64,000 nucleotides of DNA, taken from the NCBI RefSeq assembly GCF_044647545.1, contig NZ_CP172818.1; one strand, written 5' to 3'. Within the stretch, counting starts at the first letter, position 1, and each line of letters starts with the position of its first letter. A program made the position numbers and the translations under genes. Shown piece by piece: positions 37,526-56,669 of the stretch. Source of the stretch: Escherichia coli (lineage in GTDB: Bacteria > Pseudomonadota > Gammaproteobacteria > Enterobacterales > Enterobacteriaceae). A model generated the notes under the pieces. It made no database searches. It was not told where the DNA came from and saw nothing but the letters and a program-made list of their open reading frames with translations.

Positions 37526-39708
37526 TCTGCCTCCCGAACCAGCCAGATAGTGGCCAGCGGTGGTAGTGTCAGGCTTAGTGAATGCTGACGACCGTGGCTG
37601 GCAATCTCATCGCTGTGTACCGTGCCGCCATTGCCGGCATTACTGCCGTGATAGTGCATGGAATCGGTATTGAGGATTTCACGCCATTTGCCCGGCTGGT
37701 TAATGCCGAAGCGATAATCATGACGCGGCACCGGAGTAAAGTTACTGGCAACGATGATTTCGTTACCCTCTTTATCGCGACGCACAAAGATCAGCACCGA
37801 GCGTTCTTTGTCATCCACCACCAGCCATTCAAAGCCGTACGGGTCAAAATCCAGTTCATGCATTGCTTTATGGTGGCGGTAGGTGAGGTTCAGATCGCGC
37901 ACCAGACGCTGGACACCGTGGTGCCAGTTATCGCCGCCTTCCAACAGATGCCAGTCGAGGCTGGCGTCATGGTTCCACTCGCGGCCCTGGGCAAATTCGT
38001 TCCCCATGAACAGCAATTTCTTGCCCGGGAATGCCCACATCCAGCCGTAGTAGGCGCGCAGGTTAGCGAATTTCTGCCATGCGTCGCCCGGCATCCGATC
38101 GAGAATCGATTTTTTACCGTGGACCACTTCATCATGCGACAACGGCAGGACGAAGTTTTCAGTGTAGTTGTAGAGCATCCCGAAGGTCAGTTTATCGTGA
38201 TGATACTGACGATAAACCGGGTCGAGCTTCATGTAGTCCAGGGTGTCATGCATCCAGCCGAGGTTCCACTTGTACCAGAAGCCCAGACCGCCCATGTCCT
38301 GCGGACGAGAAACGCCAGGGAAATCGGTAGACTCCTCCGCCATTGTCACCGCACCGGAAACCTGCTCACCAAGAATACGGTTGGTATTACGCAAGAATTC
38401 AATCGCTTCAAGATTCTCGCGCCCGCCAAATTCGTTCGGGATCCACTCCCCCTCTTTACGGCTGTAGTCGCGGTAAATCATTGACGCCACCGCATCGACG
38501 CGCAGCGCATCAATACCAAAACGTTCGATCCAGTAAAGCGCGTTACCGACAAGGAAGTTACTGACTTCACGGCGACCATAGTTGTAGATCAGCGTATTCC
38601 AGTCCTGATGATAGCCTTCGCGCGGATCGCTGTGTTCATACAAGTTCGTGCCATCAAATTCGGCAAGCGCAAAGTCATCGGTCGGGAAGTGGCCTGGCAC
38701 CCAGTCGAGAATCACGTTCAGACCAGCTGCGTGTGCGGCATCAATGAAATAACGGAAGTCGTCGCGAGTACCAAAACGGCGGGTCGGTGCATACAGGCCG
38801 GTTGGCTGATAACCCCAACTGCCATCGAAGGGATGCTCGTTAATGGGCAGTAGCTCGAGATGGGTAAAGCCCATCCATTTAGCATAAGGCACCAGTTGAT
38901 CGGCCAGCTCGCGGTAGCTCAACCAGAAATTGTTGTCGGTGTGGCGACGCCAGGAGCCCAGGTGAACTTCATAAATAGAGATTGGCGCATCAAACTGATT
39001 CGCTTTTTTGCGCTCTTCAGTCTGTACAACCTTTTCCGGCAGCCCGCAAATAAGAGACGCGGTTTCCGGGCGCATTTGCGCTTCGAAGGCATAAGGGTCG
39101 GACTTCAGACGCAAGTTGCCATTGGCATCAATCATCTCGTATTTATAGAGCTGACCGTTATGCGCCCCAGGGATAAACAGTTCCCAGATGCCGCTCTCTT
39201 TACGCAGGCGCATCGGATGACGGCGACCGTCCCAGTAGTTGAATTGCCCAACCACCGAGACCCGACGGGCGTTTGGAGCCCAGACAGAAAAACGCGTACC
39301 TGTGACGCCATCCATAGTATCTGCATGCGCGCCTAAGGTTTCATACGGGCGCAGGTGAGTACCTTCAGATAATAGCCAGGCATCCATTTCCTGGATTAGC
39401 GGACCAAAACGGTAAGGATCATCAATCAGGTTTTGCTGACCATGCCAGACAACAGCCAACTGATAGCGGAAAAAATTCTTACGTCGCGGAATGACACCGC
39501 TAAAGAATCCCCGTGAGTCGAGACACTCCAGTTTTGCGAGTTTGCGCCCGGTTTTCGGTTCAATCACCCACACATCGGTAGCGTCGGGTAAAAGGGCACG
39601 GACTTCCAGTCCCGCGGTGGTTTTATGCATCCCCAGTACGGAAAAAGGATCCGCAAAATGGCCTGCAATTAGCGCGTTAATCACGTCTCTATCGATACGA
39701 TCGGACAT
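37522..39708 (-). CDS. glgB: 1,4-alpha-glucan branching enzyme
   Basis: 728-aa [51 protein letters not shown].... Confidence 0.95.
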
Positions 39709-39980
39709 GCTTGTCTTCCTGTTTTATTGTGTCACCCCATCCAACTGAATTTTTGACTTCTGGTTGTGACATTTTTTTGACCTGAACGGCGCAGCACTCT
39801 GTGCATCCTCTCTGCGTCGTCCTCACTTCAGGTAAGGCTGTGAATACTCGTGTATTCCGCCACCCTTAAAGAATAGCCAATGCTCTATTTAACTCCCGGT
39901 AAATCATGAAACATCTGCGCTTACTCCTGTATTACGCACTAGCAGGGGCGGCATCGCGCCCCAGATTTAATGAATAAAGA

Positions 39981-41084
39981 TTACGCCAGTTGACGAAGCA
40001 TCCGACGTAGCGGCTCCGCGGCCCCCCACAGCAGCTGGTCGCCCACGGTAAAGGCTGACAGGAACTCCGGTCCCATATTCAGCTTACGCAGACGGCCTAC
40101 CGGCGTGGTCAGCGTGCCGGTAACGGCAGCTGGGGTTAGCTCACGCATAGTGATTTCCCGATCGTTTGGAACAACTTTCGCCCACGGATTGTGCGCAGCC
40201 AGCAGTTCTTCCACGGTCGGAATAGACACATCTTTTTTCAATTTAATAGTGAATGCCTGGCTATGGCAGCGCAATGCCCCGACACGCACACATAAACCAT
40301 CTACCGGAATTACGGAAGATGTGTTGAGGATCTTGTTGGTTTCCGCCTGCCCTTTCCACTCTTCGCGGCTCTGACCGTTATCAAGCTGTTTGTCGATCCA
40401 CGGAATCAGGCTACCCGCCAGCGGCACGCCAAAGTTATCTACCGGCAGCTCACCGCTACGGGTTAAGGTTGTGACTTTGCGTTCGATATCGAGAATAGCA
40501 GAGGACGGGGTCGCGAGTTCATCTGCCACATGGCCATACAGATGGCCCATCTGGGTTAATAACTCACGCATATGTCGCGCACCACCGCCGGAAGCGGCCT
40601 GGTAGGTTGCAACGGACACCCAATCAACAAGATCATTGGCGAATAAACCACCCAACGACATCAACATCAGGCTTACGGTACAGTTACCGCCAACAAAAGT
40701 CCTGATGCCATTATTTAATCCGTCGGTAATGACGTCCTGATTGACGGGGTCAAGAATGATGATGGCGTCATCTTTCATGCGCAGAGATGATGCTGCGTCA
40801 ATCCAGTAACCTTGCCATCCGCTTTCACGAAGCTTTGGATAGATTTCGTTGGTATAATCGCCGCCCTGACAGGTCACAATGATATCGAGGGCCTTTAGCG
40901 CCTCCAGATCAAAGGCATCCTGAAGTGTGTCAGTGGTTCCGCCAAAAGACGGCGCAGCCTGACCAAGCTGAGAAGTAGAAAAGAAGACAGGGCGAATGGC
41001 GTCGAAGTCGCGCTCTTCAACCATGCGTTGCATGAGAACGGAGCCGACCATACCGCGCCAGCCGATAAAACCAACATTTTTCAT
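39981..41084 (-). CDS. asd: aspartate-semialdehyde dehydrogenase
   Basis: [45 protein letters not shown]...; start trimmed to MKNVGF (367 aa). Confidence 0.95.
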
Positions 41085-41275
41085 AAGCGTTTTTTCCTGC
41101 AAAGATGTGTGCTGTATAAATGTGCCGGTCTCCTCCTGGCACATCTTTCACCATACAAAAAGCAGCCAAAGTCGCAAGTGAAATTAATCAATGATAGCGA
41201 AGCCATCAGTAATGCGACTTATCCTGCTTTGTTAGCACGCAGAAAGTCCGCGGCAATTATCAGGGAATTTGAGTT

Positions 41276-41869
41276 ATGAATGAAATCATTTCTGCAGCAG
41301 TTTTATTGATCCTGATTATGGATCCGCTCGGAAACCTACCTATTTTCATGTCCGTACTGAAACATACTGAACCGAAAAGACGGCGGGCAATCATGGTGCG
41401 AGAGTTGCTTATTGCTCTCCTGGTGATGCTGGTGTTCCTGTTTGCGGGTGAGAAAATTCTGGCATTTCTCAGCCTGCGAGCAGAAACCGTCTCCATTTCT
41501 GGCGGCATCATTCTGTTTCTGATCGCCATTAAGATGATTTTCCCCAGCGCTTCAGGAAATAGCAGCGGGCTTCCGGCAGGTGAAGAGCCGTTTATCGTGC
41601 CGTTGGCAATTCCGTTAGTCGCCGGGCCGACTATTCTCGCCACGCTGATGTTGTTGTCTCATCAGTACCCGAATCAGATGGGACATCTGGTAATTGCTCT
41701 GCTGCTGGCCTGGGGTGGCACCTTTGTCATCCTGCTACAGTCTTCGCTATTTTTACGTCTGCTGGGCGAGAAAGGGGTGAATGCACTTGAACGCCTGATG
41801 GGATTGATTCTGGTGATGATGGCAACTCAGATGTTCCTCGACGGCATTCGAATGTGGATGAAGGGGTAA
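41276..41869 (+). CDS. yhgN: MarC-family inner membrane protein
   Basis: 197-aa ORF MNEIISAAVLLILIMDPLGNLPIFMSVLKHTEPKRRRAIMVRELLIALLVML.... Confidence 0.88.
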   Translation: MNEIISAAVLLILIMDPLGNLPIFMSVLKHTEPKRRRAIMVRELLIALLVMLVFLFAGEKILAFLSLRAETVSISGGIILFLIAIKMIFPSASGNSSGLPAGEEPFIVPLAIPLVAGPTILATLMLLSHQYPNQMGHLVIALLLAWGGTFVILLQSSLFLRLLGEKGVNALERLMGLILVMMATQMFLDGIRMWMKG

Positions 41870-41874
41870 CGTTC

Positions 41875-42000
<126 letters not shown>

Positions 42001-42062
42001 ACGGATAGTTTTTACGATAAAGTACCTGGTTTGCTTCACAACTACCGGCGCGAACAAAAAAA

Positions 42063-43403
42063 TTAACTCAACAGCTGGAACGCAATCATCCCAACGATGG
42101 CACCAACAGTGCCGAGTATGGTTTCCATCATGGTCCAGGTTTTCAGCGTTTCGGCTTCGGTCGCGCCGGTAAATTTACCGAACAACCAGAAACCGGCGTC
42201 GTTAACGTGGCTGACAACAATCGAACCACCGGCGATACAAATCGACAGCGCCGCCATTTGCGCACCGGAGTAGTTCAGTTGTTCAATAACCGGCATCACC
42301 AGTCCCACCGCCGTTAAACAGGCAACGGTGGCAGAACCCTGAATGATGCGCACTGCAGCTGCCAGCACGAAGCAGGTGATGGCAATCGGCAGGCCCATGC
42401 CGGTTAACGCTTCGCCCAGTGCCGGACCTACGCCTGAGTCAACCAGCACCTGTTTGAACACGCCGCCCGCACCAATCACCAGCAGAATGATCCCCGCCGG
42501 TTGCAGCGCGTGACCGCAAATCTCCATCACTTTGTCTTTTGGCATGCCCTGACGCATTGCCAGACCGTAAATCGCCACCAGACAAGCAACCAGAATCGCG
42601 GTAAACGGATGGCCGATAAACTCGAACCATTCGTAAGCGGTAGAGCCTTCTGGCACAAAACGCGCGGCAATGGTTTTCAGCCCCACCAGCACCAGTGGCA
42701 ACAGGATCAGCGACAGGCTGAATCCGAAGGACGGCATTTTGCCTTCGCCGAGATGTGGTTCGCTGATGTCGTCAGGAATATGCAGCTCCACGTAGCGGCT
42801 GATGAAATTACCCCACAGCGGCCCGGCAATAATCATTCCCGGAATTGCCGCACACAGGCCAATCAGGATCATCCAGCCAAAGTCGGCGTTCATCTGCGAT
42901 GCCAGCAGCATTGGCGCTGGTCCAGGCACCAGGAACGCAGCCGCTGCCGCCACGCCTGCGAATAATGGGATTACCAGCTTCACCAGGTTCGTACCGGTGT
43001 GGCGCGCCATTGAGAAAGCAACGCTAATCAGCAGAACAATCGCCACTTCAAAGAACAGCGGTAGCGCACAGACCAGCCCCGCAAGACCGATGGCATAATG
43101 CGCGCGACTGTGACCGAAGGATTTGAGCATTTTGACGGCAATCTGATCGACTGCGCCGGTTTCATGTAAGATCTTGCCAAACATGGCTCCCAGGGCGACA
43201 ACCACCGCCAGAAAGCCGAGGGTGCCTCCCATCCCTTTTTCCATCGTCGCTGCGATTTTATCGAGCGGCATACCGGAAAAAAGGCCAGCCCCCATGGACA
43301 CCACCATCAAAGCCAGGAAAGCGTGCATACGCGCCTTCATGACTAAAAACAGCAGCAGTAAAACAGACCCTACTGCTGTTAAAACAAGCGTTAATGTAGT
43401 CAC
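42063..43403 (-). CDS. gntU: low-affinity gluconate transporter (GntP family)
   Basis: 446-aa ORF MTTLTLVLTAVGSVLLLLFLVMKARMHAFLALMVVSMGAGLFSGMPLDKI...; paralogous to gntT. Confidence 0.93.
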   Translation of the reverse strand: MTTLTLVLTAVGSVLLLLFLVMKARMHAFLALMVVSMGAGLFSGMPLDKIAATMEKGMGGTLGFLAVVVALGAMFGKILHETGAVDQIAVKMLKSFGHSRAHYAIGLAGLVCALPLFFEVAIVLLISVAFSMARHTGTNLVKLVIPLFAGVAAAAAFLVPGPAPMLLASQMNADFGWMILIGLCAAIPGMIIAGPLWGNFISRYVELHIPDDISEPHLGEGKMPSFGFSLSLILLPLVLVGLKTIAARFVPEGSTAYEWFEFIGHPFTAILVACLVAIYGLAMRQGMPKDKVMEICGHALQPAGIILLVIGAGGVFKQVLVDSGVGPALGEALTGMGLPIAITCFVLAAAVRIIQGSATVACLTAVGLVMPVIEQLNYSGAQMAALSICIAGGSIVVSHVNDAGFWLFGKFTGATEAETLKTWTMMETILGTVGAIVGMIAFQLLS

Positions 43404-43406
43404 TAC

Positions 43407-43934
43407 TTATTTGCCTTTTTTAATAACCTCAATGGTGCTTGCCACAACACCTTCCAGCGGTTGATCGATATCCACCACCAGTACATCGGTTTCGTCCGCA
43501 CCCGGCTCCTGCAGCGTTTCAAACTGCGTCACCAACATTTGGGTTTTAAAGAAATGGCCTTTGCGCGCTTTCAGGCGGCTTTCAATCACATCAAAATCGC
43601 CTTTCAGGTAGATGAAAGAGAGATTCGGATTACCCGCGCGTAGCAAGTCGCGATAGTGTTTTTTCAGTGCAGAACAGACGATCAGCGACACTTTATTGGT
43701 GCGCTGCATAGCAAACGCGGCGTCGTTCAGCGCCTGCAACCACGGTTTGCGATCGTCGTCATTCAGCGGTTCACCAGACGCCATTTTTTCGATATTGCGC
43801 CGTGGATGGAGGAAATCGCCATCAAGAAACGCGGCATGAAGTTGATGCGCCACTTCACTGGCGACCGCAGATTTGCCGCTGCCCGATACGCCCATCAAGA
43901 CGTAAATGTGGTGATCATGGTTAGTCGTGCTCAA
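43407..43934 (-). CDS. gntK: thermoresistant gluconokinase
   Basis: MSTTNHDHHIYVLMGVSGSGKSAVASEVAHQL... (P-loop GVSGSGKS); native start appears to be TTG, so the track ORF over-extends by 7 codons. Confidence 0.92.
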   Translation of the reverse strand: MSTTNHDHHIYVLMGVSGSGKSAVASEVAHQLHAAFLDGDFLHPRRNIEKMASGEPLNDDDRKPWLQALNDAAFAMQRTNKVSLIVCSALKKHYRDLLRAGNPNLSFIYLKGDFDVIESRLKARKGHFFKTQMLVTQFETLQEPGADETDVLVVDIDQPLEGVVASTIEVIKKGK

Positions 43935-43964
43935 AGTGGTGCCCCCACAATACAAGAATTAAAA

Positions 43965-43992
43965 ATGTTACGGGTAACTGTTATCGGTAACA
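43965..43992 (-). promoter_or_regulatory. tandem GntR operators in the gntKU promoter
   Basis: atgttacgggtaac and tgttatcggtaaca, adjacent palindromic sites 30-60 bp upstream of gntK. Confidence 0.5.
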
Positions 43993-44072
43993 TTGTCCGG
44001 CCGGACAATATCAGAAGCAATATCCATCCGTGCCTTAAGTGTATAAGTGTGAGCTACTTCAAATTTGTGGGC

Positions 44073-45068
44073 TTAAATAGATCCGCCCGGTGACAAGGTG
44101 AAACCTAAATCTAACATTTTCGGTGTCACAGATTCGCCACGAATACGCGCCAGCAGGCGTTCAGCGCCAATACTGCCCATCCGCTCACGCGGCGTCAGTA
44201 CGCTCGCCAACCGTGGTTCCATCACCTGACCAATGTCATGACCATGGAAACCGGCAATCGCCATATCGTCAGGAACTTTTAACCCCAGACGCTGACATTC
44301 AAACGCCGCGCCGACCGCCAGATCATCATTAGTACAGAACACGCCATCCAGCTGCGGATATTCCCGCCGTGCCTGGCGAATCAGTTCAATACCGGAAGAG
44401 TAAGAAGAAGATTGCTCAACCATCACGCTATACGGCACCAGGCCTGCATCCAGCATCGCCTGTTCGTATCCCTTCTGTTTGATGATAGTACGTTCGTCGA
44501 GACGTGCGCCGAGATAGGCAATGTGGCGATGCCCGCGAGCAATAATGGCAGTGGTCATCTGGCGTGCCGCTTCAAAGTTATCAAAACCGACGGCAATATC
44601 GAGGCACGGCGACTTGCTGTCCATCAACTCCACCACCGGAATCCCCGCCACTTCAATCATCTTTAAGGTGCGTGGCGTGTGAGTACGTTCGGTGAGGATC
44701 AGGCCGTCGATATTCCATGAGAGCATGGATTCGAGGCGTTCTTGCTCCATTTCCGGTTTATAACCGTAGTGCGCCAGCATGGTTTGATAACCGTGCGCGT
44801 CGGTGACGCTTTCGATTCCGCGTAATACTTCCGCGAAAACCTGGTTGGTGAGAGAAGGTAACAGGACGCCAATCGCCCGGCTGGTGGCGTTAGAGAGGAT
44901 ATCGGGCGCGCGATTGGGAATATAACCCAGTTCATCAAGAGCGGCGGCAATCTTGCCGCGTAGAGCGACGGAAACCTGCTCCGGGTTGCGTAAAAAACGG
45001 CTGACCGTCATTTTGGTCACGCCTACACGGTCAGCCACATCCTGAAGTACGGGTCTTTTCTTTTTCAT
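44073..45068 (-). CDS. gntR: gluconate repressor GntR (LacI family)
   Basis: 331-aa ORF MKKKRPVLQDVADRVGVTKMTVSRFLRNPEQVSVALRGKIAAALDELGYIPNRAP... (N-terminal HTH). Confidence 0.95.
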   Translation of the reverse strand: MKKKRPVLQDVADRVGVTKMTVSRFLRNPEQVSVALRGKIAAALDELGYIPNRAPDILSNATSRAIGVLLPSLTNQVFAEVLRGIESVTDAHGYQTMLAHYGYKPEMEQERLESMLSWNIDGLILTERTHTPRTLKMIEVAGIPVVELMDSKSPCLDIAVGFDNFEAARQMTTAIIARGHRHIAYLGARLDERTIIKQKGYEQAMLDAGLVPYSVMVEQSSSYSSGIELIRQARREYPQLDGVFCTNDDLAVGAAFECQRLGLKVPDDMAIAGFHGHDIGQVMEPRLASVLTPRERMGSIGAERLLARIRGESVTPKMLDLGFTLSPGGSI

Positions 45069-45291
45069 CGTCCTGAAGGTACAAAAGAGATAGATTCTTT
45101 TAGTTTAACACGGACGCCTCAGAACCTTCCCGGGGAAAACAGTGCTTGTTTACAATTATTAGATATACACTAAATCAATTGCATCGCATTGTGCTAACGA
45201 CACGGCAAAACCCCGGTCGCGTACATCAGCACGCGACCGGAGCGAGCGAGGAAGCCTGCAAAAAGGCAGGCTTCAAAGATGCCGTTGAGTT

Positions 45292-45987
45292 TTAAACCGG
45301 CGGCAGATCGAACAGTAACACTTCGCTGTCGCTATCCGCATGAATGGAGATTGCCTGCTCATCCCAGATTGCCAGACCATCGCTGGTCGAGGCTTTCACG
45401 CCGTTAATGGTGACATTGCCTTTCACCACCTGGATCCAGACGCGGCGTTCAGCGGCAATCTGATGCACCGACTGCTCATCTTTCAGCAATGCCCAACGAT
45501 ACAGTTCCATATCCTGATGCACTTTCAGCGAACCATCTCGCGCATCCGGCGAGAGCACCAGCTGTTTGCCCTGTACGGCATCGAAGCGACGCTGTTCATA
45601 ACGCGGCGTAATGCCGTTTTCTTCAGGCATGATCCAGATCTGATACAGATGCAGACGCTCGGTGCTGCTTGGGTTGTACTCAGAGTGACGGATACCCGTA
45701 CCCGCACTCATAATCTGGAACTCACCCGCCGGAACCTGCTCTTTATTGCCCATGCTGTCCTGGTGCTCAACAGTACCTTCCAGCACGTAGGTCAAAATTT
45801 CCATATCTTTATGCGGGTGAGTACCGAAGCCCTGCCCTGCTTCAATCACGTCGTCGTTAATCACGCGCAGCGCGGAGAAACCCATAAAGTTCGGGTCGTA
45901 GTAGTTGGCAAAAGAGAAAGTATGCCAGGAGTCCAGCCAGCCATGATTTGCATGACCACGTTCATTTGCTTTGCGTAAGTAGATCAT
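45292..45987 (-). CDS. yhhW: pirin-like bicupin (quercetin 2,3-dioxygenase)
   Basis: 231-aa ORF MIYLRKANERGHANHGWLDSWHTFSFANYYDPNFMGFSALRVINDD.... Confidence 0.9.
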   Translation of the reverse strand: MIYLRKANERGHANHGWLDSWHTFSFANYYDPNFMGFSALRVINDDVIEAGQGFGTHPHKDMEILTYVLEGTVEHQDSMGNKEQVPAGEFQIMSAGTGIRHSEYNPSSTERLHLYQIWIMPEENGITPRYEQRRFDAVQGKQLVLSPDARDGSLKVHQDMELYRWALLKDEQSVHQIAAERRVWIQVVKGNVTINGVKASTSDGLAIWDEQAISIHADSDSEVLLFDLPPV

Positions 45988-46109
45988 TTGTATTCGCCCC
46001 CTGAATGTTTTCGATGGGCTTAGTGTGGACCCGATCTGCCTGGGATGATAGAGGGTGAAAATTGACCCCTATGTTCAAAAAAATTGAACTATTCGAGGGG
46101 CCATCAAAC

Positions 46110-47147
46110 TTACTTCGCGAGAGTCACTGTGGAGGGAGAGGCTTGCTCAAAACCGCGTTCAAGGATTTCCAAATTGGTAAGAACTTCAGATTCCTTGACG
46201 TAATTTGGCGCACCGTTGGTGATGGTTTGATACAACGCATCATAAACGCGCCCGTAATCGCCCATCTCCGGCTTCATCTCTTCTCTGACCGTCACCCCCT
46301 CGTCATTGACATACTCCAGCACACCGACCGAATCATCCGCTGCGAATCCCGGTTCGCCCGGCATAATATTAGCCTTGAGGCTGGTTTCCTGCTGGTCGAT
46401 ACCGTATTTAATAAACGAACCTTTCTTACCGTGAACGATAAATTTCGGATAATCGATTTTCACCAGATGGCTGGTTTTGACGATGGCTTTCAGGTCGCCA
46501 TAAAACAGCTGCGCTTCAAAGGTGTCGTCAGGATTGGCTTTATTACGCAGGCTGCGGATGTCATAAGCGACGTGATCCGGGCGACCGAACAGAGAAATAA
46601 TCTGGTCCATCGTATGCACACCAAGGCCATAGAACGCGCCATCCTGCGGCAGCCCAGGTTTGGTTTCTGCCACCGGGCGGTAATAGTCAAAATGGCTTTC
46701 CACTTCAACAATCTCTCCCAGCTTGCCGCTTTCAATCGCTTTTTTCGCCGTCAGAAAACAGGAATCAAAGCGACGATTCTGATACGGCGTGACGGTCAGC
46801 CCTTTACTTTTCGCCAGCGCAAAAAGTTCTTTCGCTTGCGCAAGCGTCGGAGTGAATGGTTTTTCGACCAGCACATTTTTCCCGGCTTCCAGCGCGCGCT
46901 TCGCGTACTCGAAGTGGCTGTCCGCATGGGTGCAGACAACAACCAGCTTAACATCGGGATCGTTTAGCACTTCGTCGAGATCGCTGGTGAAATGGATATG
47001 AGAGTAAATGGGAGCCTGTTCTTCCGGCTTCGCATGGCGACGAAAAATATGCGCGACATGCCAGCTATCCTTGCGGTTAAGTACATACGGCAGATGGTAA
47101 CGGGTGGTGCTTTTGCCGAAGCCAATAAAGGCGCAGTTGATGACCAT
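46110..47147 (-). CDS. yhhX: Gfo/Idh/MocA-family NAD(P)-dependent oxidoreductase
   Basis: 345-aa ORF MVINCAFIGFGKSTTRYHLPYVLNRKDSWHVAHIFRRH... (Rossmann GFGKS). Confidence 0.9.
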   Translation of the reverse strand: MVINCAFIGFGKSTTRYHLPYVLNRKDSWHVAHIFRRHAKPEEQAPIYSHIHFTSDLDEVLNDPDVKLVVVCTHADSHFEYAKRALEAGKNVLVEKPFTPTLAQAKELFALAKSKGLTVTPYQNRRFDSCFLTAKKAIESGKLGEIVEVESHFDYYRPVAETKPGLPQDGAFYGLGVHTMDQIISLFGRPDHVAYDIRSLRNKANPDDTFEAQLFYGDLKAIVKTSHLVKIDYPKFIVHGKKGSFIKYGIDQQETSLKANIMPGEPGFAADDSVGVLEYVNDEGVTVREEMKPEMGDYGRVYDALYQTITNGAPNYVKESEVLTNLEILERGFEQASPSTVTLAK

Positions 47148-47269
47148 GATTTCGTCCTTTTTAAGGGGGTTATTTACACCTTAGCGCAAAGCGGACGTGG
47201 TTCCTACTGGAGTGCGCATAACGAACACAAGCACTTCCCGTGGATAATTTGAAAACGAAAGATCAAAAA

Positions 47270-47359
47270 AAAAGCCAGCACCCGGCTGGCTAAGTAATAC
47301 TGGAAGCAATGTGAGCAATGTCGTGCTTTCAGGTTCTCCGCGAGGGTCTTCCTGATCGC
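47270..47359 (-). ncRNA. ryhB: RyhB small RNA (Fur-repressed, iron-sparing response)
   Basis: Minus strand reads GCGATCAGGAAGACCCTCGCGGAGAACCTGAAAGCACGACATTGCTCACATTGCTTCCAGTATTACTTAGCCAGCCGGGTGCTGGCTTTT, matching the 90-nt RyhB sequence from memory, with its terminator hairpin and U-run; located between yhhX and yhhY as in K-12. Confidence 0.88.
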
Positions 47360-47361
47360 AA

Positions 47362-47386
47362 GACAATAATAATCATTCTCATTCGC
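47362..47386 (-). promoter_or_regulatory. Fur box overlapping the ryhB promoter
   Basis: caataataatcattctcattcgc immediately upstream of the ryhB 5' end; shares the core cattctcatt with the candidate feoA Fur box. Confidence 0.55.
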
Positions 47387-47480
47387 ACTTGTCCAACACT
47401 TTTTGCAAAAAAATGCATTTGACTCGCATTTGAAAGTCAATGATGTTGAAAGGGACATTTACCCCAAAGAGGACAAAGGA

Positions 47481-48305
47481 ATGAGTGAGATAGTAATACG
47501 CCACGCAGAAACACGCGATTACGAGGCCATCAGGCAGATTCACGCCCAGCCGGAGGTGTATTACAACACGCTACAGGTGCCTCATCCTTCAGAACAAATG
47601 TGGCTGGAACGACTCACCGCTCGCCCTGGCATCAAGCAGTTAGTCGCCTGTATTGATGGAATCGTCGTAGGCCATCTCACCATTGACGTGCAACAACGCC
47701 CACGCCGCAGTCATGTTGCCGACTTTGGTATCTGTGTCGACTCCCGTTGGAAGAACCGCGGCGTCGCCAGCGCCCTGATGCGAGAGATGATTGAAATGTG
47801 CGACAACTGGTTGCGGGTAGATCGTATTGAGCTAACGGTGTTCGTCGATAACGCGCCAGCAATTAAGGTCTATAAAAAATTTGGCTTTGAGATTGAAGGG
47901 ACTGGCAAGAAGTACGCGCTGCGTAAGGTGAATCGGGAGATCATGGGGTGCGCAACTTACGATGTGTGGGTAGGTGCTGCGGCTCCTCCGGCCCCGCCCG
48001 CTACGGCGGGCTACGGCGCGCGGCCGCCGCCGCAAACGGCGCCGCACGAATCGGGCCGCGGGGCCGCCTGCCCGCTCCGCGCCCCGGCGGTCCCGCGCAC
48101 GGGCAGGGCACCGCGCGGGGCCAGCGCGGGCGCGCAGCGGTTACGCGACCCCGGGGGGTGCGCGTTCGGTGACGCACGGGCGACGCGGGGGCAGGCCGCG
48201 CACCCGACGGGGGGGACGGGGCGGCCGCGGCCCGCCGGGGCCCAGCGCGACGGGGGGCCCGACGGGCCGGCGGGGCGAGCCCTCACCTACCGGGAGAGGG
48301 CTTAA
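47481..48305 (+). CDS. yhhY: GNAT N-acetyltransferase YhhY with a disrupted 3' end (148 native residues fused to an anomalous Ala/Gly/Arg/Pro-rich tail)
   Basis: MSEIVIRHAETRDYEAIRQIHAQPEVYYNTLQVPHPSEQMW...GTGKKYALR is recognisable as YhhY (about 162 aa in K-12); from 47925 the frame runs into ~80% GC low-complexity sequence and stays open to 48305; the native C-terminus is absent. Confidence 0.6.
   Translation: MSEIVIRHAETRDYEAIRQIHAQPEVYYNTLQVPHPSEQMWLERLTARPGIKQLVACIDGIVVGHLTIDVQQRPRRSHVADFGICVDSRWKNRGVASALMREMIEMCDNWLRVDRIELTVFVDNAPAIKVYKKFGFEIEGTGKKYALRKVNREIMGCATYDVWVGAAAPPAPPATAGYGARPPPQTAPHESGRGAACPLRAPAVPRTGRAPRGASAGAQRLRDPGGCAFGDARATRGQAAHPTGGTGRPRPAGAQRDGGPDGPAGRALTYRERA
47925..48305. 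other. anomalous ~80% GC low-complexity block replacing the yhhY 3' end and the yhhY-ggt spacer
   Basis: About 380 bp dominated by gcg/ggc/ccg repeats; open in several frames on both strands as expected for stop-poor GC-rich sequence; flanking E. coli DNA is about 50% GC. Confidence 0.75.
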
Positions 48306-48309
48306 GATA

Positions 48310-50052
48310 TTAATACCCCGCCGTTAAATCATCCACCGAGCGCGAGTCGGATGCACCGTACAACTCACCATCCGACCCAACCATAATGCTTTGCGTACTG
48401 CCCATCGCCTCTTTCAGCGCCACTTTCTGACCTTTTGCTTCCAGCAGCTTGAGCGTATCCGGGCTAAACCCTTTTTCGACACGCAGCTCGTCCGGCAACC
48501 ACTGATGGTGGAAACGTGGCGCATTGGTCGCTTCGGCGACATTCATACCACAATCGATGCTATTCACCACCATTTGCAGCACGGTAGTGATGATCCAGCT
48601 CCCGCCAGGGCTACCGGTAACCAGCCAGGTTTTACCGTCTTTCACCACAATGGTGGGTGACATCGACGACAGCGGGCGTTTATTCGGCCCGACCGCGTTG
48701 GCGTCACCACCCACCAGCCCGTAAACGTTCGGTACGCCCGGTTTGGCGGAGAAATCATCCATCTGGTTATTGAGCAAAATACCGCTCTCGCCCGCGACAA
48801 TGCCCGTCCCGAAGGTGGTGTTCAGCGTATAGGTCACCGCCACCGCGTTACCGTCTTTATCCACCACTGAGTAATGGGTAGTTTGATTACTCTCATAAGG
48901 CGCAAGCTTGCCGGGGCGAATTTCGCTGGATGGCTTCGCTTTATTGATATCGATTTGATCGGCAATAGATTTGGCATAGGCTTTATTGGTCAGCGCCTGC
49001 CACGGTACTTTGACAAAATCCGGATCGCCAAGATATTCCGAGCGGTCGGCGTAGGCGTATTTCTCAGCTTCTGCCATGATTTGCATCGCGTCGGCACTGC
49101 CAAAGCCGTACTTCTTCATATCGAAGTTTTCCAGGATATTGAGGATCTGCACGATATGAATCCCACCGGAAGATGGCGGTGGCATCGAGTAAACCTGATA
49201 CCCGCGATATTCGCCGCTAATCGGTGTACGTTCGACCGCTTTATACGCCGCTAAATCTTCTTTAGTGATCAAGCCACCGTTTTTCTGCATCTCCTGGGCA
49301 ATCTGTTCCGCTATCGTGCCTTTGTAGAATTCGTCCGGGCCGTTTTCGGCAATCATCTCCAGGCTCTTTGCCAGGTTCGCCTGCACCAGCTTGTCACCCT
49401 TTTTCAGCGGCGCGCCCTCTTTCCAGAAGATAGCCTTGCTGTTTTCGTGATTCGGCAATACTTCGCTACCGTAGGTTTTGAGATCGTCAGCCAACGCGTC
49501 GTTAACGATAAAACCATCGCGTGCCAGTTTAAACGCCGGTTGCACCACTTTGTTCAACGGCATGGTGCCGTACTTCTCCAACGCCAGCGAGAAACCTGCT
49601 ACCGTACCGGGCGTACCAGAAGCCAGATGCGAAGTGAGTGATTTTTTGCTGTCCGGGTTACCCTGATCATCAAGGAACATATCGCGGGTCGCTTTGGCGG
49701 GTGCCATTTCGCGGAAATCGATAGCCGTGGTATTGCCATTTTTCGAGCGGATTAACATAAAACCACCGCCGCCCAGATTCCCCGCCTGCGGATGCGTTAC
49801 CGCCAGCGCGTAGCCCACTGCCACGGCAGCATCAACGGCATTCCCGCCCTCCTTGAGGATATCCACCCCCACCTGAGTGGCAGTAGCATCTACAGACGCC
49901 ACCATCCCCTGTTTCGCGCGTACCGGATGAAAGACATCTTCCTCCACGCCGTAAGAAACAGGAGACGGCGCAGGTGGCGCGGCTACCGTACTAAAACAAC
50001 TTCCTGTGAACAGAGCAGCAATGGCCACCCGGCGTAAAAACGTCGGTTTTAT
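48310..50052 (-). CDS. ggt: gamma-glutamyltranspeptidase (periplasmic)
   Basis: MIKPTFLRRVAIAALFTGSCFSTVAAPPAPSPVSYGVEEDVFHP... (signal peptide); start trimmed to MIKPTF (580 aa). Confidence 0.95.
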   Translation of the reverse strand: MKPTFLRRVAIAALFTGSCFSTVAAPPAPSPVSYGVEEDVFHPVRAKQGMVASVDATATQVGVDILKEGGNAVDAAVAVGYALAVTHPQAGNLGGGGFMLIRSKNGNTTAIDFREMAPAKATRDMFLDDQGNPDSKKSLTSHLASGTPGTVAGFSLALEKYGTMPLNKVVQPAFKLARDGFIVNDALADDLKTYGSEVLPNHENSKAIFWKEGAPLKKGDKLVQANLAKSLEMIAENGPDEFYKGTIAEQIAQEMQKNGGLITKEDLAAYKAVERTPISGEYRGYQVYSMPPPSSGGIHIVQILNILENFDMKKYGFGSADAMQIMAEAEKYAYADRSEYLGDPDFVKVPWQALTNKAYAKSIADQIDINKAKPSSEIRPGKLAPYESNQTTHYSVVDKDGNAVAVTYTLNTTFGTGIVAGESGILLNNQMDDFSAKPGVPNVYGLVGGDANAVGPNKRPLSSMSPTIVVKDGKTWLVTGSPGGSWIITTVLQMVVNSIDCGMNVAEATNAPRFHHQWLPDELRVEKGFSPDTLKLLEAKGQKVALKEAMGSTQSIMVGSDGELYGASDSRSVDDLTAGY

Positions 50053-50174
50053 CATCGTTATTCTCCAGAGATTAAGGGGCAACCCCAGCTAAGCCTGGTA
50101 TATAACTCTGAATTAATCCTGATGATTGCAGGAAAGGAGTAAACTTAAAGAATATCTTCAGAGGAGGATACGCG

Positions 50175-50615
50175 ATGAAACGACTTCTGATTCTTACGGC
50201 ACTCCTGCCGTTTGTCGGCTTTGCACAGCCCATTAATACTCTGAATAACCCTAACCAGCCGGGGTATCAGATCCCCAGTCAGCAGCGGATGCAAACCCAA
50301 ATGCAAACGCAGCAAATCCAGCAAAAAGGGATGCTGAATCAGCAACTGAAAACGCAAACTCAGTTGCAACAACAGCATTTAGAAAACCAGATAAACAATA
50401 ATTCTCAGCGGGTGTTGCAGTCACAGCCGGGGGAGCGAAATCCCGCCCGGCAGCAAATGCTGCCCAACACCAATGGCGGGATGTTAAACGGCAACCGTAA
50501 TCCGGATAGTTCGTTGAATCAGCAGCATATGTTGCCGGAGAGGAGAAACGGCGACATGCTGAATCAACCCGGCACGCCGCAGCCTGATATACCGTTGAAA
50601 ACTATTGGGCCGTAA
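50175..50615 (+). CDS. yhhA: secreted Gln-rich protein YhhA (DUF2756)
   Basis: 146-aa [53 protein letters not shown]... (signal peptide, Q-rich). Confidence 0.85.
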
Positions 50616-51345
50616 AGTTCGGACCAATCACATCAATCGCATCGGTACAGATGCAATCCACGCCCCAGCGCAGCAACTCTGCCGCGCGCTGGGGTTTATT
50701 GACGGTATAAACCAGAATTCGCAGTCCTGCATCTTTCAACTGCATCACTCGCGCTTTATCGAGCAACTTATGATTGAGATGAATAGAGACGCAGCCCAGT
50801 CGCGCGGTCAATTCTCGCCAGTCGTCGCGCCACTCATCAAGCAATAAACCGCGCGGCAGTTCTGGTACTGCTTGTTGCGCGGCGTCTAAAGCATCAATCT
50901 CAAACGATGACAGCAGCGGCGGCGTCATTCCGGCCCACAGTTCGCGTGCCGCCAGCGCCACCATTTTGCCCGTTAATGGCCCGGTGCCAGTGGTGGGTTT
51001 GATTTCGATATTCGCCATCATCCCGTGTTTGCGACAACGTTCCGCCACCTGCGAAAGCAACGGCAGTGGCTCACCTTTAAACGCTTTGCTGTACCAACTG
51101 CCTGCATCCACGCGCAGTAAATCCTGCCAGTTCAGATCGCCCGCGACGCCCCAGCCGTTGCTGGTGCGTTCAAGATTGTCGTCATGGAGCAGGAAGATTT
51201 CGCCATCTTTCGATAACTTCGCGTCAAATTCGATCATCTTATGACCGTATTTTGCCCCGACGTCGATTGCTGCCAGGGTGTTCTCCGGGGCCAGTTTACC
51301 GCCGCCACGATGGGCGACGATGCGGGGATAAGGCCAGTTACTCAT
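50602..51345 (-). CDS. ugpQ: glycerophosphodiester phosphodiesterase (cytoplasmic)
   Basis: 247-aa [51 protein letters not shown]...; last gene of the ugp operon. Confidence 0.93.
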
Positions 51346-52412
51346 ACTCGTTGTCCTGTTTCACCATCAAAAAGATGTAGCTGATTTTCCGGCAGATGCA
51401 GCCACAGCGTGCTGCCTGCCGTCGGGCGCTCCTGATGTGCCAGTCGCACCACCAGCTTCTGTTCGCCCCAGCGTCCGTGCGCCAGGTTATCTGCGCCGAG
51501 GATCTCCAGCGTGTCCATCACCAGCGGCACACCACCTTCTGCCTGCGAGCTTAGCGCTATATGTTCCGGGCGAATGCCGAGGGTCATTTTACGCCCGGCA
51601 TACTGACGGTAGCCACCGTTTAGCGGCAGCGTAATACAACCATCCAGTTCGAAATGCGTACCTTCGTTATTCACGCGACCTGCCAGCAGGTTCATCGCCG
51701 GGCTGCCGATAAAACTCGCTACAAACAGGCTGGCGGGCTTTTCGTAGACTTCCACTGGCGTGCCAATCTGTTCGGCAACGCCGCCGTTCATCACCATTAC
51801 TCGCTGGGCGAGCGTCATCGCCTCAACCTGATCGTGAGTAACGTAGAGTGAAGTCGTTTTCAGGCGACGGTGCAGTTGTTGCAGTTCAAGACGCATCTGC
51901 ACACGCAGCTTGGCATCGAGGTTAGAGAGCGGCTCATCAAACAGGAACACTGCCGGCTCACGCACAATCGCACGCCCCATCGCCACACGCTGACGCTGAC
52001 CGCCAGATAGCTCACGCGGGCGGCGCTTAAGCAGGCCGTCCAGCTCCAGAATGCGCGCCGCTTCTTTAACACGTTCGGCAATTTGTTGCTTGCCCATGCC
52101 GCGAATTTTCAGCCCCCACGCCATGTTCTCCTCTACGCTCATATGCGGATAGAGCGCGTAGTTCTGAAACACCATCGCAATCCCGCGATCTTTCGGCTCC
52201 ATTTCGGTGACACGCTTGCGGTCGATCCAGATATCGCCCGTCGTTACCCGCTCCAGTCCGGCCACCATTCGCAATAACGTCGATTTCCCGCAGCCAGACG
52301 GCCCGACCATCACGATAAATTCGCCATCCGCCACATCAAGGGTCAGCGGTTTAATGACCTGGGTTTTGCCATCCCAGCTTTTGGTTACTGCCTGTAATTT
52401 CAGTCCTGCCAT
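51342..52412 (-). CDS. ugpC: sn-glycerol-3-phosphate ABC transporter, ATP-binding subunit
   Basis: [49 protein letters not shown]... (Walker A, LSGGQRQR signature); start trimmed to MAGLK. Confidence 0.95.
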
Positions 52413-52413
52413 C

Positions 52414-53259
52414 TTATTTCTCACTATCGACCAGGCCGCGCACGAAGGCACGCTGCATCACTAAAACAATCACTACTGGTGGGATCAGCGTTAACAACAT
52501 CGCCGCCATCACCGAGTTCCATTCCGTGGTGCCTTCGCCAGTGGCGATCATCCCTTTAATCCCTGCCACGGTGGTGCCGAGATCAACGTCGGTAATAATC
52601 AACAACGGCCACAAATACTGGTTCCAGCCGTAAATAAAGGTGATCACAAACAGCGCCGCCAGATTAGTTTTGGACAGCGGAAAAACGATGTCGCAAAAGA
52701 AACGCATTGGTGACGCGCCGTCGATCCGCGCGGCTTCCACCAGCTCATCCGGCAGCGTCATAAAGAACTGGCGGAACAGGAAGGTGGCGGTCGCCGAGGC
52801 CATCAGCGGCAGCGTTAAGCCGGCGTAGCTGTCGAGCATCTTCAGATTGGCGATGACTTCCACCGTCGGGAAGATACGCACTTCAACCGGCAGCATCAGG
52901 GTGATAAAAATCATCCAGAAGAAGAGGTTACGTAGCGGAAAACGAAACCAGACAATGGCAAATGCCGAGAGCATCGAGACGGTAATTTTGCCGAGCGTAA
53001 TGCTGAACGCCATCACAAAGCTGTTAAGCAACATCCGCCAGAACGGCGCGCTATTCGTGCCTACCCCGTTCACCCAGATGTTGTGGATGTTTTCCAGCAG
53101 ATGTGTGCCGGGGATTAGCGTCATCGGTGCGGCATAGACTTCTTGTTTATCCAGCGTCGCCGCGACAAACGCCACGTACAGCGGGAAGAGGATCACCGCG
53201 ATCCCGAGGATCAGCATGGTATGGCTGAATATTGTCAGCCACGGACGGTTCTCAATCAT
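52414..53259 (-). CDS. ugpE: sn-glycerol-3-phosphate ABC transporter permease
   Basis: 281-aa [44 protein letters not shown].... Confidence 0.93.
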
Positions 53260-54143
53260 TGGTAACGTACCTTGCTTTCAACATAGCGGAACTGCACCAC
53301 CGTCAGCACGATGACGAGGAACATCAACACCACCGACTGCGCGGCAGACGAAGCCAAATCCAGTCCGGTAAAGCCTTCACGGTAGATCTTATAAATCAGC
53401 GTCGTGGTGGCCTGTACTGGCCCGCCGGACGTGGCGGCGTCGATCACCGGGAAGGTGTCGAAGAAGGCGTACACCAGGTTCACCACCAGCAGGAAGAAAC
53501 TCACCGGAGCGATAAGCGGCAGCGCAATCTTAAAGAAGCGGCGAATCGGGCCTGCACCGTCGATGGCTGCGGCTTCGATCAACGAACGGGGAATGGATTG
53601 CAGCGCGGCATAGAAGAACAGAAAGTTGTAGCTAATTTGCTTCCACACCGAGGCAAACACCACCAGGAACATCGCCTGACCGCTGTTTTGTGCGTGGTTC
53701 CAGTCGTAGCCGAACTCAGCGAGAAAATGGGTGATCAGCCCGCGACCGGGGTTAAACAGAAAGATCCACAATACGGCGGCAACGGCGGGAGCCACGGCAT
53801 ACGGCAGCAGCATTAAGGTTTGATAGAAACGGCTGCCGCGCACGATGTACTCCACCAACGCCGCGAAGAACAGTGACACCAGCAAACCGCTGACGGTGAC
53901 AAAGGTGCTGAATTTTATCGTCGTCCAGAAGGAGTCGAGATAGTAGCTGTCATGAAACAGCGTGACGAAGTTATCCAGGCCGACAAACTGGCTGGAGAAA
54001 CCAAACGGATCGACGCTTTGTAGCGAGTACCACAACGCTTCGCCCGCAGGCCAGATAAAAAAGATAACGGTGATGATGAGCTGCGGCGCGACCAGCAAAT
54101 AAGGCAGCCAGCGCGAGCGGAACACCGGACGGGATGATGACAT
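53256..54143 (-). CDS. ugpA: sn-glycerol-3-phosphate ABC transporter permease
   Basis: 295-aa [46 protein letters not shown]...; 4-bp overlap with ugpE. Confidence 0.93.
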
Positions 54144-54164
54144 TACAGTTAATTCCTGAACTGT

Positions 54165-54230
54165 GCCGGATGCGCTTCGCTTATCCGGCCTACACGCGAT
54201 GCCAGGTCAGATAAGCGAAACGCATCCGAC
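54165..54230. repeat. REP element(s) between ugpB and ugpA
   Basis: gccggatgcgcttcgcttatccggcctac plus a second palindromic unit gccaggtcagataagcgaaacgcatccgac in the intra-operon spacer. Confidence 0.7.
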
Positions 54231-54240
54231 ATTACACTGA

Positions 54241-55557
54241 TTAAGACTTCGTCGATTTCTCAAAGCGGCGCAGTAACTGATTCCCACGCTCAACGGCGGT
54301 ATCCAGCGCCTGCTGTGGCGTCTTCTTACCGGTCCACACGCTCTCCAGCTCTTCATCCACAATCACGCGGATCTGCGGCATGTTGCCCAGACGCAGCCCT
54401 TTGGTGAACGGCAACGGCGGCTTGTTCAGCATCTGACGCGTCGCGGTATCCGCCCCTGGGTTTTTCTCATAAAAGCCCTGCTCACGGGTCAGGTCATACG
54501 CCGCTTTGGTAATTGGCAGATAACCGGTTTTCTGATGCCACTCGGCAGCGTTTTCTGGCTTCGCGAGGAAGTCGAGAAACTTCGCCACGCCGGTATACGT
54601 TTCTTTATCTTTGCCCTGCATCACCCACAGGCTGGCTCCGCCGATAATGGCGTTTTGCGGCGCGTCTTTCGCATCGGCATCGTAAGGCATCATGCCTACG
54701 CCATAGTTAAATTTGGCGTACTCGCGAATGTTGGCAAGAGAACCGGAAGAGGCGGTCGTCATCGCGCAATCACCGTTATAGAACTTCTCGGTGGATTCAT
54801 CCTTACGCCCAACGTAGCTGAAATCGCCCTTCTTGTTCATCTCTTCGAGCATGGCGATGTGTTTCACCTGCTCCGGCTTGTTGAACTCAAGCACCGCGTC
54901 TGTGCCGTCAAAGCCGTTGTTTTTGCTGGCAAACGGCAAACCGTTCCAGGCGCTAAAGTTTTCCAGTTGGATCCATCCCTGCCAGCCGCTGGCGTAGCCG
55001 CACTTCATACCGGAGGCTTTCAGTTTTGCGGCATAGTCCGCCAGATCCTGCCAGGTTTTTGGCGGCTGTTCCGGGTCTAATCCTGCTTTCTTGAAGGCGT
55101 CTTTGTTGTAATAGAGAACGGGAGTCGAGCTGTTGAACGGCTGGGAGAGTAAGTGGCCGGTTTTGCTGTCGGAGTAATAGCCTGAAACCGTCGGCACAAA
55201 CTGCGACTCATCGAATTGAATCCCCGCCTCTTTAAACACGTCATACACCGGTTTAATGGCTTTCGACGCCATCATGGTGGCGGTGCCAACTTCATAAACC
55301 TGCAAAATAGCCGGAGCGTTGCCGGTACGAAATGCGGCAATCCCCGCGCTTAAATTCTGTTCGTAGTTGCCTTTATAGGTCGGTACAATTTTGTAATCCG
55401 GGTTTTCGGCGTTAAAACGTTGGGCCAGAGAATCCACCTCTTTGCCCAGTTCCCCTTCCATAGAATGCCAGAACGGAATGGTCGTCACTGCCTGCGCATT
55501 TGCCATTAAAGCCAGTCCGAGCGCCAGTGCTGAAGCTGTATAACGTAACGGTTTCAT
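54241..55557 (-). CDS. ugpB: sn-glycerol-3-phosphate ABC transporter periplasmic binding protein
   Basis: 438-aa [54 protein letters not shown]... (signal peptide). Confidence 0.95.
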
Positions 55558-55676
55558 TGATTATCTCTCTTGTTGTACCGAATGCGCGAATTCACGCGTT
55601 TTATGCTCGCGGGGTAACATGACATGCTCGAATTACAGAAAAATAACTATTTTGTTACATTTTTAAGATAGTAAGG

Positions 55677-55694
55677 TGTCAGAAAGATGACAAG
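55677..55694 (-). promoter_or_regulatory. candidate Pho box in the ugpB promoter
   Basis: Minus strand reads TTGTCATctttCTGACAC, two 7-bp repeats with a 4-bp spacer, resembling the PhoB consensus CTGTCAT-N4-CTGTCAT; about 120 bp upstream of ugpB. Confidence 0.45.
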
Positions 55695-55794
55695 GCGGTG
55701 ACGGCGCGGGCGAGGGAAAATGGGAGATGGGGCACGGATAAGCGGGAAAAATAGAAGGTCTGAATCAAACTCTACAGATTGCTCATCGTTTCAT

Positions 55795-55893
<99 letters not shown>

Positions 55894-55954
55894 AATTTTA
55901 CATTTGTAACCTGTCTCAAAGGAGTCTTTTGACTCCTTATCAATCAACGTGTTA

Positions 55955-56668
55955 TTACCCGCCTAAATACGCACTTCTCACCGCTTCGTTCGCCAGCAGC
56001 GCATCGCCGGTATCGGAGAGCACCACATGACCGTTTTCCAGAACGTAGCCGCGATCAGCGAGCTTCAGCGCCTGGTTGGCGTTCTGCTCGACGAGGAAGA
56101 TGGTCATCCCCTGCTCGCGCAGCTGCTCGATGGTGTCGAAAATTTGCTGGATGATAATCGGCGCAAGACCGAGCGATGGCTCATCAAGCAACAATAAACG
56201 CGGGTTGCTCATCAGCGCGCGCCCAATCGCCAGCATCTGCTGCTCACCGCCGGACATGGTGCCCGCCCGCTGAACACGGCGTTCATGGAGACGCGGAAAC
56301 AGTTCATACACCCACTTTATGCGTTCCTGGAACTGGTCGCGTTCGGCAAAAAAGCCGCCCATCGCCAGGTTCTCTTCCACCGTCATCCGCGAGAAAACAC
56401 GACGCCCTTCCGGAACAATCGCCACCGCTTCGCGCATGATTTTCGCTGTCTGCCAGTCGGTAATGTCTTTATCATCAAACACAATTCGCCCACTGGTGGC
56501 GCGTGGGTCGCCGCATAACGTGCCGAGCAAGGTGGTTTTCCCCGCCCCGTTCGCGCCAATCAGCGTGACAATTTCGCCCTGATTGATATGCAGGCTCACC
56601 TCATGCAGCGCCTGGATTTTGCCGTAGTGGGCGCTGACTTTGTCAAAGGACAACATGACTTTTTCCAT
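55955..56668 (-). CDS. livF: branched-chain amino acid ABC transporter ATP-binding protein LivF
   Basis: MEKVMLSFDKVSAHYGKIQALHEVSLHINQGEIVTLIGANGAGKTTLLGTL...; start trimmed to MEKVML. Confidence 0.93.
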   Translation of the reverse strand: MEKVMLSFDKVSAHYGKIQALHEVSLHINQGEIVTLIGANGAGKTTLLGTLCGDPRATSGRIVFDDKDITDWQTAKIMREAVAIVPEGRRVFSRMTVEENLAMGGFFAERDQFQERIKWVYELFPRLHERRVQRAGTMSGGEQQMLAIGRALMSNPRLLLLDEPSLGLAPIIIQQIFDTIEQLREQGMTIFLVEQNANQALKLADRGYVLENGHVVLSDTGDALLANEAVRSAYLGG

Positions 56669-56669
56669 C

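Follow-up and report, generated by a model that had tools for sequence, protein, structure and literature searches.

How does the 3' end of an ordinary Escherichia coli gene come to be written as DNA with a G+C content (GC) of 82-91%? The question is raised by a 64-kb stretch of the E. coli chromosome (contig NZ_CP172818.1; hereafter the window, analyzed over its whole length from pckA to rpoH), in which a GC-rich block replaces the end of yhhY, a gene for a GNAT N-acetyltransferase, together with part of the spacer that separates it from the convergent gene ggt, encoding gamma-glutamyltransferase (GGT). The evidence presented below leaves little doubt that this block is a corrupted record of an ordinary insertion sequence, IS1, located in the yhhY-ggt spacer, that is, an artefact of the record and not biology. 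At the level of sequence alignment, the written block proved to be a deletion-only, base-type-biased derivative of IS1; corruption of the same kind was found at other loci of the window record and in a deposited assembly, and the substitutions adjoining the block, in ggt, turned out to copy the alleles of a second strain.

The GC-rich block and yhhY as written

Codons 1-148 of yhhY (47481-47926, plus strand, with the ATG at 47481) are intact and 100% identical to the yhhY gene of strain FDAARGOS_497 (NZ_CP033850.1), the closest genome to the window, where the gene is annotated as 489 nt encoding 162 aa. The same sequence is found here in strains ST648, MS6198, ECONIH1 and others. At position 47927 a T is absent, which produces an apparent frameshift, and the next seven bases (GGTGAAT), up to position 47933, are native. 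These bases belong to an onset zone of 19 nt (47927-47945, plus strand), written in place of the last 14 yhhY codons and part of the spacer. A first-pass annotation, made from the sequence alone, had proposed that about 20 bases after the breakpoint still resemble yhhY; this holds for the seven bases following the one-nucleotide deletion, beyond which the resemblance is at chance level (z = 0.3). The native sequence returns exactly at position 48278, 32 nt before the ggt stop codon (48310-48312), and from this position the window is identical to FDAARGOS_497, beginning with a lineage-specific spacer (48278-48309) that carries a shared terminator hairpin (AGCCCTC...GAGGGCT). Altogether, a native segment of 71 nt is replaced by approximately 351 nt as written. 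The block is not a degraded copy of these native 71 nt, since the similarity between them does not rise above chance (z = 1.2 and 0.3).

The compositional change is gradual on the left side, with GC climbing from 0.55 to 0.9 across 47927-47980. It amounts to 82-91% over 47934-48277 and, in 100-nt windows, to 0.75-0.91 over 47951-48300, which is the only sustained stretch above 0.72 GC in the 64 kb (window mean of 0.529, sd 0.070). The block of about 80% GC overwriting the yhhY 3' end, as described in the first-pass annotation, is thus present in the record, and so is the chimeric product of 300 aa. The latter is a spurious open reading frame (ORF; 47403-48305, plus strand) which joins YhhY residues 1-148 to a low-complexity tail of 126 aa rich in Ala, Gly, Arg and Pro, the frame remaining open throughout; its length is 300 aa if read from a TTG and 274 aa from the true ATG. 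Five further ORFs, of 58-117 aa, overlap the GC-rich block on both strands.

Identification of the block as a thinned copy of IS1

IS1 is about 768 bp long, is bounded by left (IRL) and right (IRR) inverted repeats of about 23 bp, carries insA and insB' joined by a -1 frameshift, and is flanked by a target duplication of about 9 bp. All 332 nt of the block proper (47946-48277, plus strand, 84% GC) could be placed in order on IS1A, from base 1 of the IRL to approximately position 671, with 325 matches, seven mismatches, no insertions and 118 gap runs. The bases of IS1 that are missing from the block are distributed very unevenly, comprising 115 of 147 A (78%), 129 of 156 T (83%), 50 of 174 C (29%) and 45 of 194 G (23%). 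This means a loss of about 80% of A and T and about 26% of G and C, and it is these loss rates that turn the 53% GC of IS1 into the 84% GC of the block. At 47946-47975 the IRL can be seen in thinned form (GG-G-TGC-G-CAACTTAC-GAT). IS1 positions 672-768 have no clear counterpart in the block, and the IRR is not recognizable.

The four-letter alignment was made with an aligner in which omissions are cheap, and it was accompanied by several controls, all of them strong (z = 5 to 14). Shuffling of the block gave z = 14.5. A null distribution of 400 real E. coli segments of 768 nt had a mean score of 278 (sd 32) and a maximum of 353, against 445 for IS1, and the reverse complement of IS1 scored 306. 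In the skeleton test, the block was reduced to its G and C letters and compared with about 200 kb of sequence, both strands included, that had been reduced in the same way. The G/C-only match was found solely at loci with the K-12 yhhY-ggt island, on the plus strand, with a score of 122 against shuffle maxima of 78-90, and it falls within IS1 (extracted locus L016, 4021-4577), where 249 of 254 letters are identical (z = 10). Finally, a locus model consisting of the native sequence, IS1 and a 9-bp duplication scored 537, compared to -409 for the model without IS1, and located the insertion immediately ahead of the hairpin, 21-31 nt past the stop codon of yhhY.

The K-12-type IS1A fits the block better (score of 445; 325/332) than does the IS1 variant located between rtcA and rtcB in FDAARGOS_497 (375; 312/331). 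As a separate observation, the island found between yhhY and ggt in K-12 holds an IS1A in the same orientation as the thinned copy.

The block thus resembles the IS1A of E. coli K-12 in its base order over positions 1-671, in its start at IRL base 1 and in its plus orientation, and an intergenic spacer next to a terminator is a typical harmless insertion site for IS1. It differs from IS1 in its length (332 nt vs 768 bp), in its composition (84% vs 53% GC) and in the lack of intact insA and insB, of a recognizable IRR and of a recognizable target duplication, its ORFs being of low complexity and without homologs. As the written block does not have the length or the insA/insB frames of the family, nor a recognizable IRR, and as its differences from IS1 are deletions only, it is classified here as a corrupted IS1 record and not as a variant or member of IS1. 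Of the origins considered in the first-pass annotation, an artefactual sequence is borne out by this deletion-only relationship to IS1; a synthetic sequence or a foreign high-GC fragment is not, the block deriving from a mobile element that is native to E. coli.

The position of the insertion also bears on yhhY itself. Because IS1 would sit after the yhhY stop codon, the "frameshift" at 47927 is where the base dropout sets in, and the gene itself is probably intact. The earlier statement that yhhY lacks its native C-terminus therefore applies to the record as written and probably not to the organism, in which IS1 would lie 21-31 nt past the stop codon.

Absence of coding, structural and foreign signatures

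The omission of bases from IS1 removed the yhhY stop codon and opened stop-free frames on both strands, and nothing in the block is indicative of a real gene. Its codon-phase GC is flat (0.86/0.84/0.82), without the periodicity in which GC3 greatly exceeds GC2, and no homologs of the 126-aa tail were detected at E ≤ 1e-3 among 5.8 billion proteins. A look-up of the exact 274-aa chimeric YhhY found no public assembly with this product on record; the unmutated GGT of the lineage, used as the positive control of the exact product look-ups, was found. The coding hypothesis was rejected on these three grounds, namely the lack of periodicity, the tail without a homolog and the negative look-ups. In agreement with the first-pass annotation, the overlapping ORFs are best regarded as a by-product of stop-poor GC-rich DNA, as supported by the lack of codon periodicity and of a tail homolog. 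The homologous fusion in other genomes, which that annotation had named, along with consistent read support, as the finding that would speak for a real insertion, was not encountered, the exact product being off record and the tail lacking homologs.

Searches at the nucleotide level were similarly negative. In none of the 5,426 complete E. coli genomes that served as the comparison set was the locus covered by 80% or more, and within 47925-48305 only the 28 nt of the native hairpin occur in other E. coli genomes. The suggestion that BLAST might reveal a high-GC source found no support, since with the low-complexity filter on, the block matched nothing in E. coli genomes, plasmids and phages beyond this 28-nt hairpin and one chance match of 49 nt. 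Exact words of 25-41 nt from the block, the only kind of match covered by this search, were absent from 100,044 GTDB species genomes, the JGI metagenomes and IMG/VR. Rfam gave no match to the block and reported only the native RyhB upstream. No tandem array was identified in the block, which contains just two trivial 10-nt tandem duplications, and its inverted repeats are imperfect, weak and GC-rich, as expected by chance at such a composition. The likeness to horizontally acquired high-GC islands or gene fusions is therefore superficial, being limited to the compositional jump and the extended ORF; unlike them, the block lacks a source, homologs and codon structure, and its left junction is not sharp.

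A substitution tract in the 3' end of ggt

The ggt gene (48310-50055, minus strand, according to the reference annotation) carries substitutions in its 3' end. Twelve of them, without any indels, are located at 48322-48597 and are followed by 15.4 kb of perfect identity to the lineage, so that the 276 nt adjoining the block hold every one of the 12 substitutions encountered over the 15.7 kb on its right side. None of the 5,426 E. coli genomes contains this haplotype, the best match reaching 96.2%. One strain, E. coli BS-04 (RefSeq NZ_CP172819.1), agrees with the window at eight of the 12 variant sites. Of the 10 sites within 48322-48520 that distinguish the two lineages, the window sides with BS-04 at 8; past 48520 it does so at none of about 100. 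Two of the variants, 48345A and 48394C, are private to BS-04 within the set of 5,426 genomes, and four of the 12 substitutions were seen nowhere else. The tract is thus a patchwork in which alleles of the BS-04 type are mixed with those of the window's own lineage. Six substitutions turn a lineage-private allele into the common E. coli allele, for which the probability under random error is approximately 1e-8.

At the protein level, the substitutions cause the changes R486W (in the motif GSPGGSRII), Y501C, P560S and P570S (K-12 residue numbering, counted by hand), all four at residues conserved between the GGT proteins of E. coli and Helicobacter pylori; the ggt of BS-04 also carries P570S. 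The mutated GGT, searched as an exact product, is absent from public assemblies, and the unmutated GGT of the lineage is present in 4036 blocks of such assemblies. In both lineage contigs displayed, yhhY lies directly beside ggt with no insertion; it is an intact gene of 162 aa in one of them and is split in the other.

Two natural origins of this tract were considered and rejected. A recombination tract from another E. coli or Escherichia would require crossovers 8 bp apart, and the best genome reaches only 96.2% identity; a word containing two neighboring substitutions of the tract was likewise absent from all GTDB species representatives and metagenomes. As for a cluster produced by break repair or damage to single-stranded DNA, the strand bias is suggestive (of the 11 transitions, 10 are C>T or A>G when read on the coding strand of ggt), yet BS-04 alleles are copied by 8 of the 12 changes.

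Other corrupted stretches in the window

Compared with FDAARGOS_497 and the strains sharing its sequence, the window is 100% identical over 717-23136, 23127-30001, 30002-41869, 42061-47926 and 48598-64000. An entropy scan singled out three long blocks, at 146-716, at 41870-42060 and the GC-rich block; the other dips are isolated single windows of 60-80 nt, all of them within reference-identical stretches. All three junk blocks set in gradually on the left side, and on the right side the true sequence returns abruptly and exactly. Structural polymorphism among E. coli lineages exists at all four anomalous sites, i.e. the three junk blocks and a deletion at 29999-30001. In particular, K-12-type genomes lack the toxin-antitoxin island relE/parE-nadS and have a 3.4-kb island, yhhZ-yrhA-IS1-yrhD-yrhB, between yhhY and ggt.

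The first block follows 145 perfect nucleotides, with single-base deletions from position 146 onwards and then a homopolymer-rich blur (runs of A up to 20 and of C up to 17), exact identity being regained at 717. It remains collinear with relE/parE-nadS, the toxin-antitoxin island that the reference carries here (z = 10.7 in a global alignment), with correlations of 0.6-0.9 between base counts in 20-column segments. The second block, at 41870-42060, consists of about 130 nt of A-rich sequence with 10-15% GC, ending in A30, at a place where the relatives have a 3.5-kb DprA/RecQ-helicase island; after the A30 it continues with a copy, about 70% identical, of the K-12-type yhgN-gntU spacer. At the fourth site, 2,840 bp that are present in the closest genomes are deleted, with a 2-bp microhomology (CC) at 29999-30001, inside hypothetical and PstS-family genes of a PstS-like island between glpD and glgP. 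The junction of this deletion occurs in none of the 5,426 E. coli genomes (best match of 92.3%). Perhaps by coincidence, it falls on a round number, position 30000 of the window.

Two further features of the window lie outside the corrupted stretches. At 23127-23136, the window lacks the IS1 that is present between rtcA and rtcB in FDAARGOS_497, and the 10-bp overlap of the alignments at this point fits an empty site with a single target copy, which looks like ordinary natural variation as far as can be judged from the alignments. The sRNA gene ryhB (47264-47330, minus strand), located between yhhX and yhhY, is native and untouched by the corruption; its Rfam match was partial because the search range began at 47300. 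The first-pass annotation had mentioned neither the IS1 identity of the block, nor the 12-substitution tract in ggt, nor the two other corrupted stretches.

The same syndrome in E. coli BS-04

A distant search with positions 100-760 of the window yielded a single record aligning across the whole blurred block, the RefSeq genome of E. coli BS-04 (NZ_CP172819.1, GCF_044648255.1). In this record the relE/parE-nadS island is blurred in a similar way, with the onset in the same zone and the recovery at an identical point (TTTGCAAGCGAATCC). Runs of A20 and T14 form junk in a PstS-like remnant, at the locus of the window's 29999-30001 deletion. Downstream of nikR, the BS-04 sequence is first C-rich and then G/A-rich for more than 1 kb, with 3-10% T, and comparison of this region with rhsB of K-12 revealed 72 mismatches and 574 gap openings over 5.2 kb. 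Judged by this alignment, the region downstream of nikR is a real rhsB from which one base, T, has been almost wholly dropped. The corrupted stretches thus comprise, in the extracted segments of this RefSeq complete genome, L017, L021:29211-29500 and L022:28100-30900, and PGAP annotation of the corrupted loci resulted in pseudogene fragments and novel "hypothetical" proteins (WP_400165611-613).

Like the window, BS-04 shows base dropout and homopolymer blur at accessory or repeated loci, and the two share two private ggt variants. Unlike the window, BS-04 is of the K-12 type at yhhY-ggt and has no block there, and its rhsB loses mainly T, whereas the window block loses both A and T. A search of the literature on how BS-04 was sequenced found nothing relevant.

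Origin of the block

The proposed course of events starts from an ordinary IS1A-like element, inserted in plus orientation between the convergent genes yhhY and ggt on an ST648-like chromosome, approximately 21-31 nt past the yhhY stop codon. Since the block carries IS1 from its first base, IS1 reads were present at this locus. The read pile-up would have been heterogeneous, with many reads lacking the insertion or coming from a second, BS-04-like E. coli; such heterogeneity could stem from an IS1 carried by only a fraction of the population, from reads of multiple IS1 copies and/or from reads of the second strain. With "gap" competing against "base" at every column, a consensus or polishing step would have dropped bases according to their type. 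In ggt, the consensus would then have flipped to BS-04-like alleles for about 200 bp, gained a few errors and relocked on the true lineage. The omission of bases presumably arose at the consensus or polishing stage and not in the cell, and in the organism itself YhhY, with its 162 aa, is most likely intact, and GGT and IS1 are most likely normal.

Several points weigh against this interpretation. Gap-cheap alignment can fit many sequences, so that the IS1 claim rests on the controls described above. That the IS1 is complete is presumed, as its last 100 bp or so, its right inverted repeat and the target duplication cannot be recognized, and the insertion site is resolved to about 10 nt, with insertion points 87-97 of the native segment scoring within 1 unit of one another. 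The better fit of the K-12-type IS1A would be compatible with IS1 reads either from the main strain or from a second, contaminating strain. The deletion-only relationship did not extend to the A-rich block at 41.9 kb, which gave z = 1.2 when tested in this way against the DprA/RecQ island. Last, the absence of the written block from real DNA is deduced and not shown, and the mechanism itself, heterogeneous or mixed reads combined with a biased consensus step, is a conjecture.

Among the rival explanations, the one that survives best, though we consider it improbable, is an in silico origin, in which a generative or in-painting model, or deliberate planting, produced sequence that drifted to low complexity and then relocked on the true genome. 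Such an origin would fit the gradual onset and abrupt recovery of all three junk blocks, the collapse of the junk toward poly-A or GC-rich sequence, the drift of the sequence beside the block toward species-majority alleles and the unique deletion junction at window position 29999-30001. However, a free-running model would not give the order of IS1 by deletions only, with no insertions, and a public RefSeq record shows the same syndrome, including the T-specific dropout in rhsB. Moreover, the "majority" alleles include two BS-04-private variants, which points to real second-strain reads rather than to a learned prior. Hallucination by a language model was accordingly rejected as the main explanation, on the strength of the BS-04 syndrome and the IS1 skeleton.

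It is very improbable that the block consists of low-quality tails of single reads, Sanger-like or from a stalled long read, left in a draft assembly of a strain without IS1 at all. The progressive deterioration and the homopolymer blur at 146-716 do resemble read-end decay, but the block carries IS1 from its first base, and random error does not explain the substitutions that copy BS-04 (P = 1e-8). A physically real tract, formed by decay of an IS1 in vivo through hundreds of small A/T-biased deletions and accompanied by a cluster of error-prone repair in ggt, deserves equally little credence. It would account for the deletion-only relation to IS1 and for the adjoining strand-biased transitions (10 of 11, as given above). 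Nevertheless, it needs 118 deletion runs in 671 bp while the 60-kb flanks are unchanged; the same corruption affects unrelated loci, namely two further blocks of the window and several of BS-04; and the eight ggt changes copy the alleles of another strain and are not new mutations. We know of no process that makes such A/T-biased multi-deletion decay. Slighter still is the chance that an A/T-depleted IS1 is physically present in the strain, with an unknown in vivo process having introduced more than 100 small deletions and left the tract of 84% GC, the YhhY fusion ORF and the ggt cluster. Finally, an insertion of foreign high-GC DNA (from an actinobacterium, a pseudomonad or a GC-rich virus) by illegitimate recombination, with a truncated yhhY and a real fusion protein, is scarcely credible, for although the extreme GC, the open frame and the known variable spot between yhhY and ggt would favor it, the block follows the order of IS1 (325/332), has no codon periodicity, no source in plasmids, phages, GTDB, metagenomes or viral contigs and no homolog of its tail, and has a GC of 84-91%, which to our knowledge is above any bacterial genome average.

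Implications

The chimeric YhhY of 300 aa, the low-complexity ORFs and the GGT changes R486W, Y501C, P560S and P570S are unfit for annotation, for counts of novel genes and for pangenome or variant analyses. The corruption has a recognizable signature, i.e. a deletion-only, base-type-biased loss with gradual onset and abrupt recovery, which affects repeats as well as mobile elements and accessory islands. At least one RefSeq "complete genome" (NZ_CP172819.1) carries it, and both this record and the window record should be flagged as locally corrupted. The signature can be detected without access to the reads, by comparing reduced-alphabet skeletons (e.g., G and C only) of blocks of odd composition with known repeats. 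The block itself is neither a functional element nor a real feature, and the biology left over at this locus is an ordinary insertion of IS1 in a convergent intergenic spacer.

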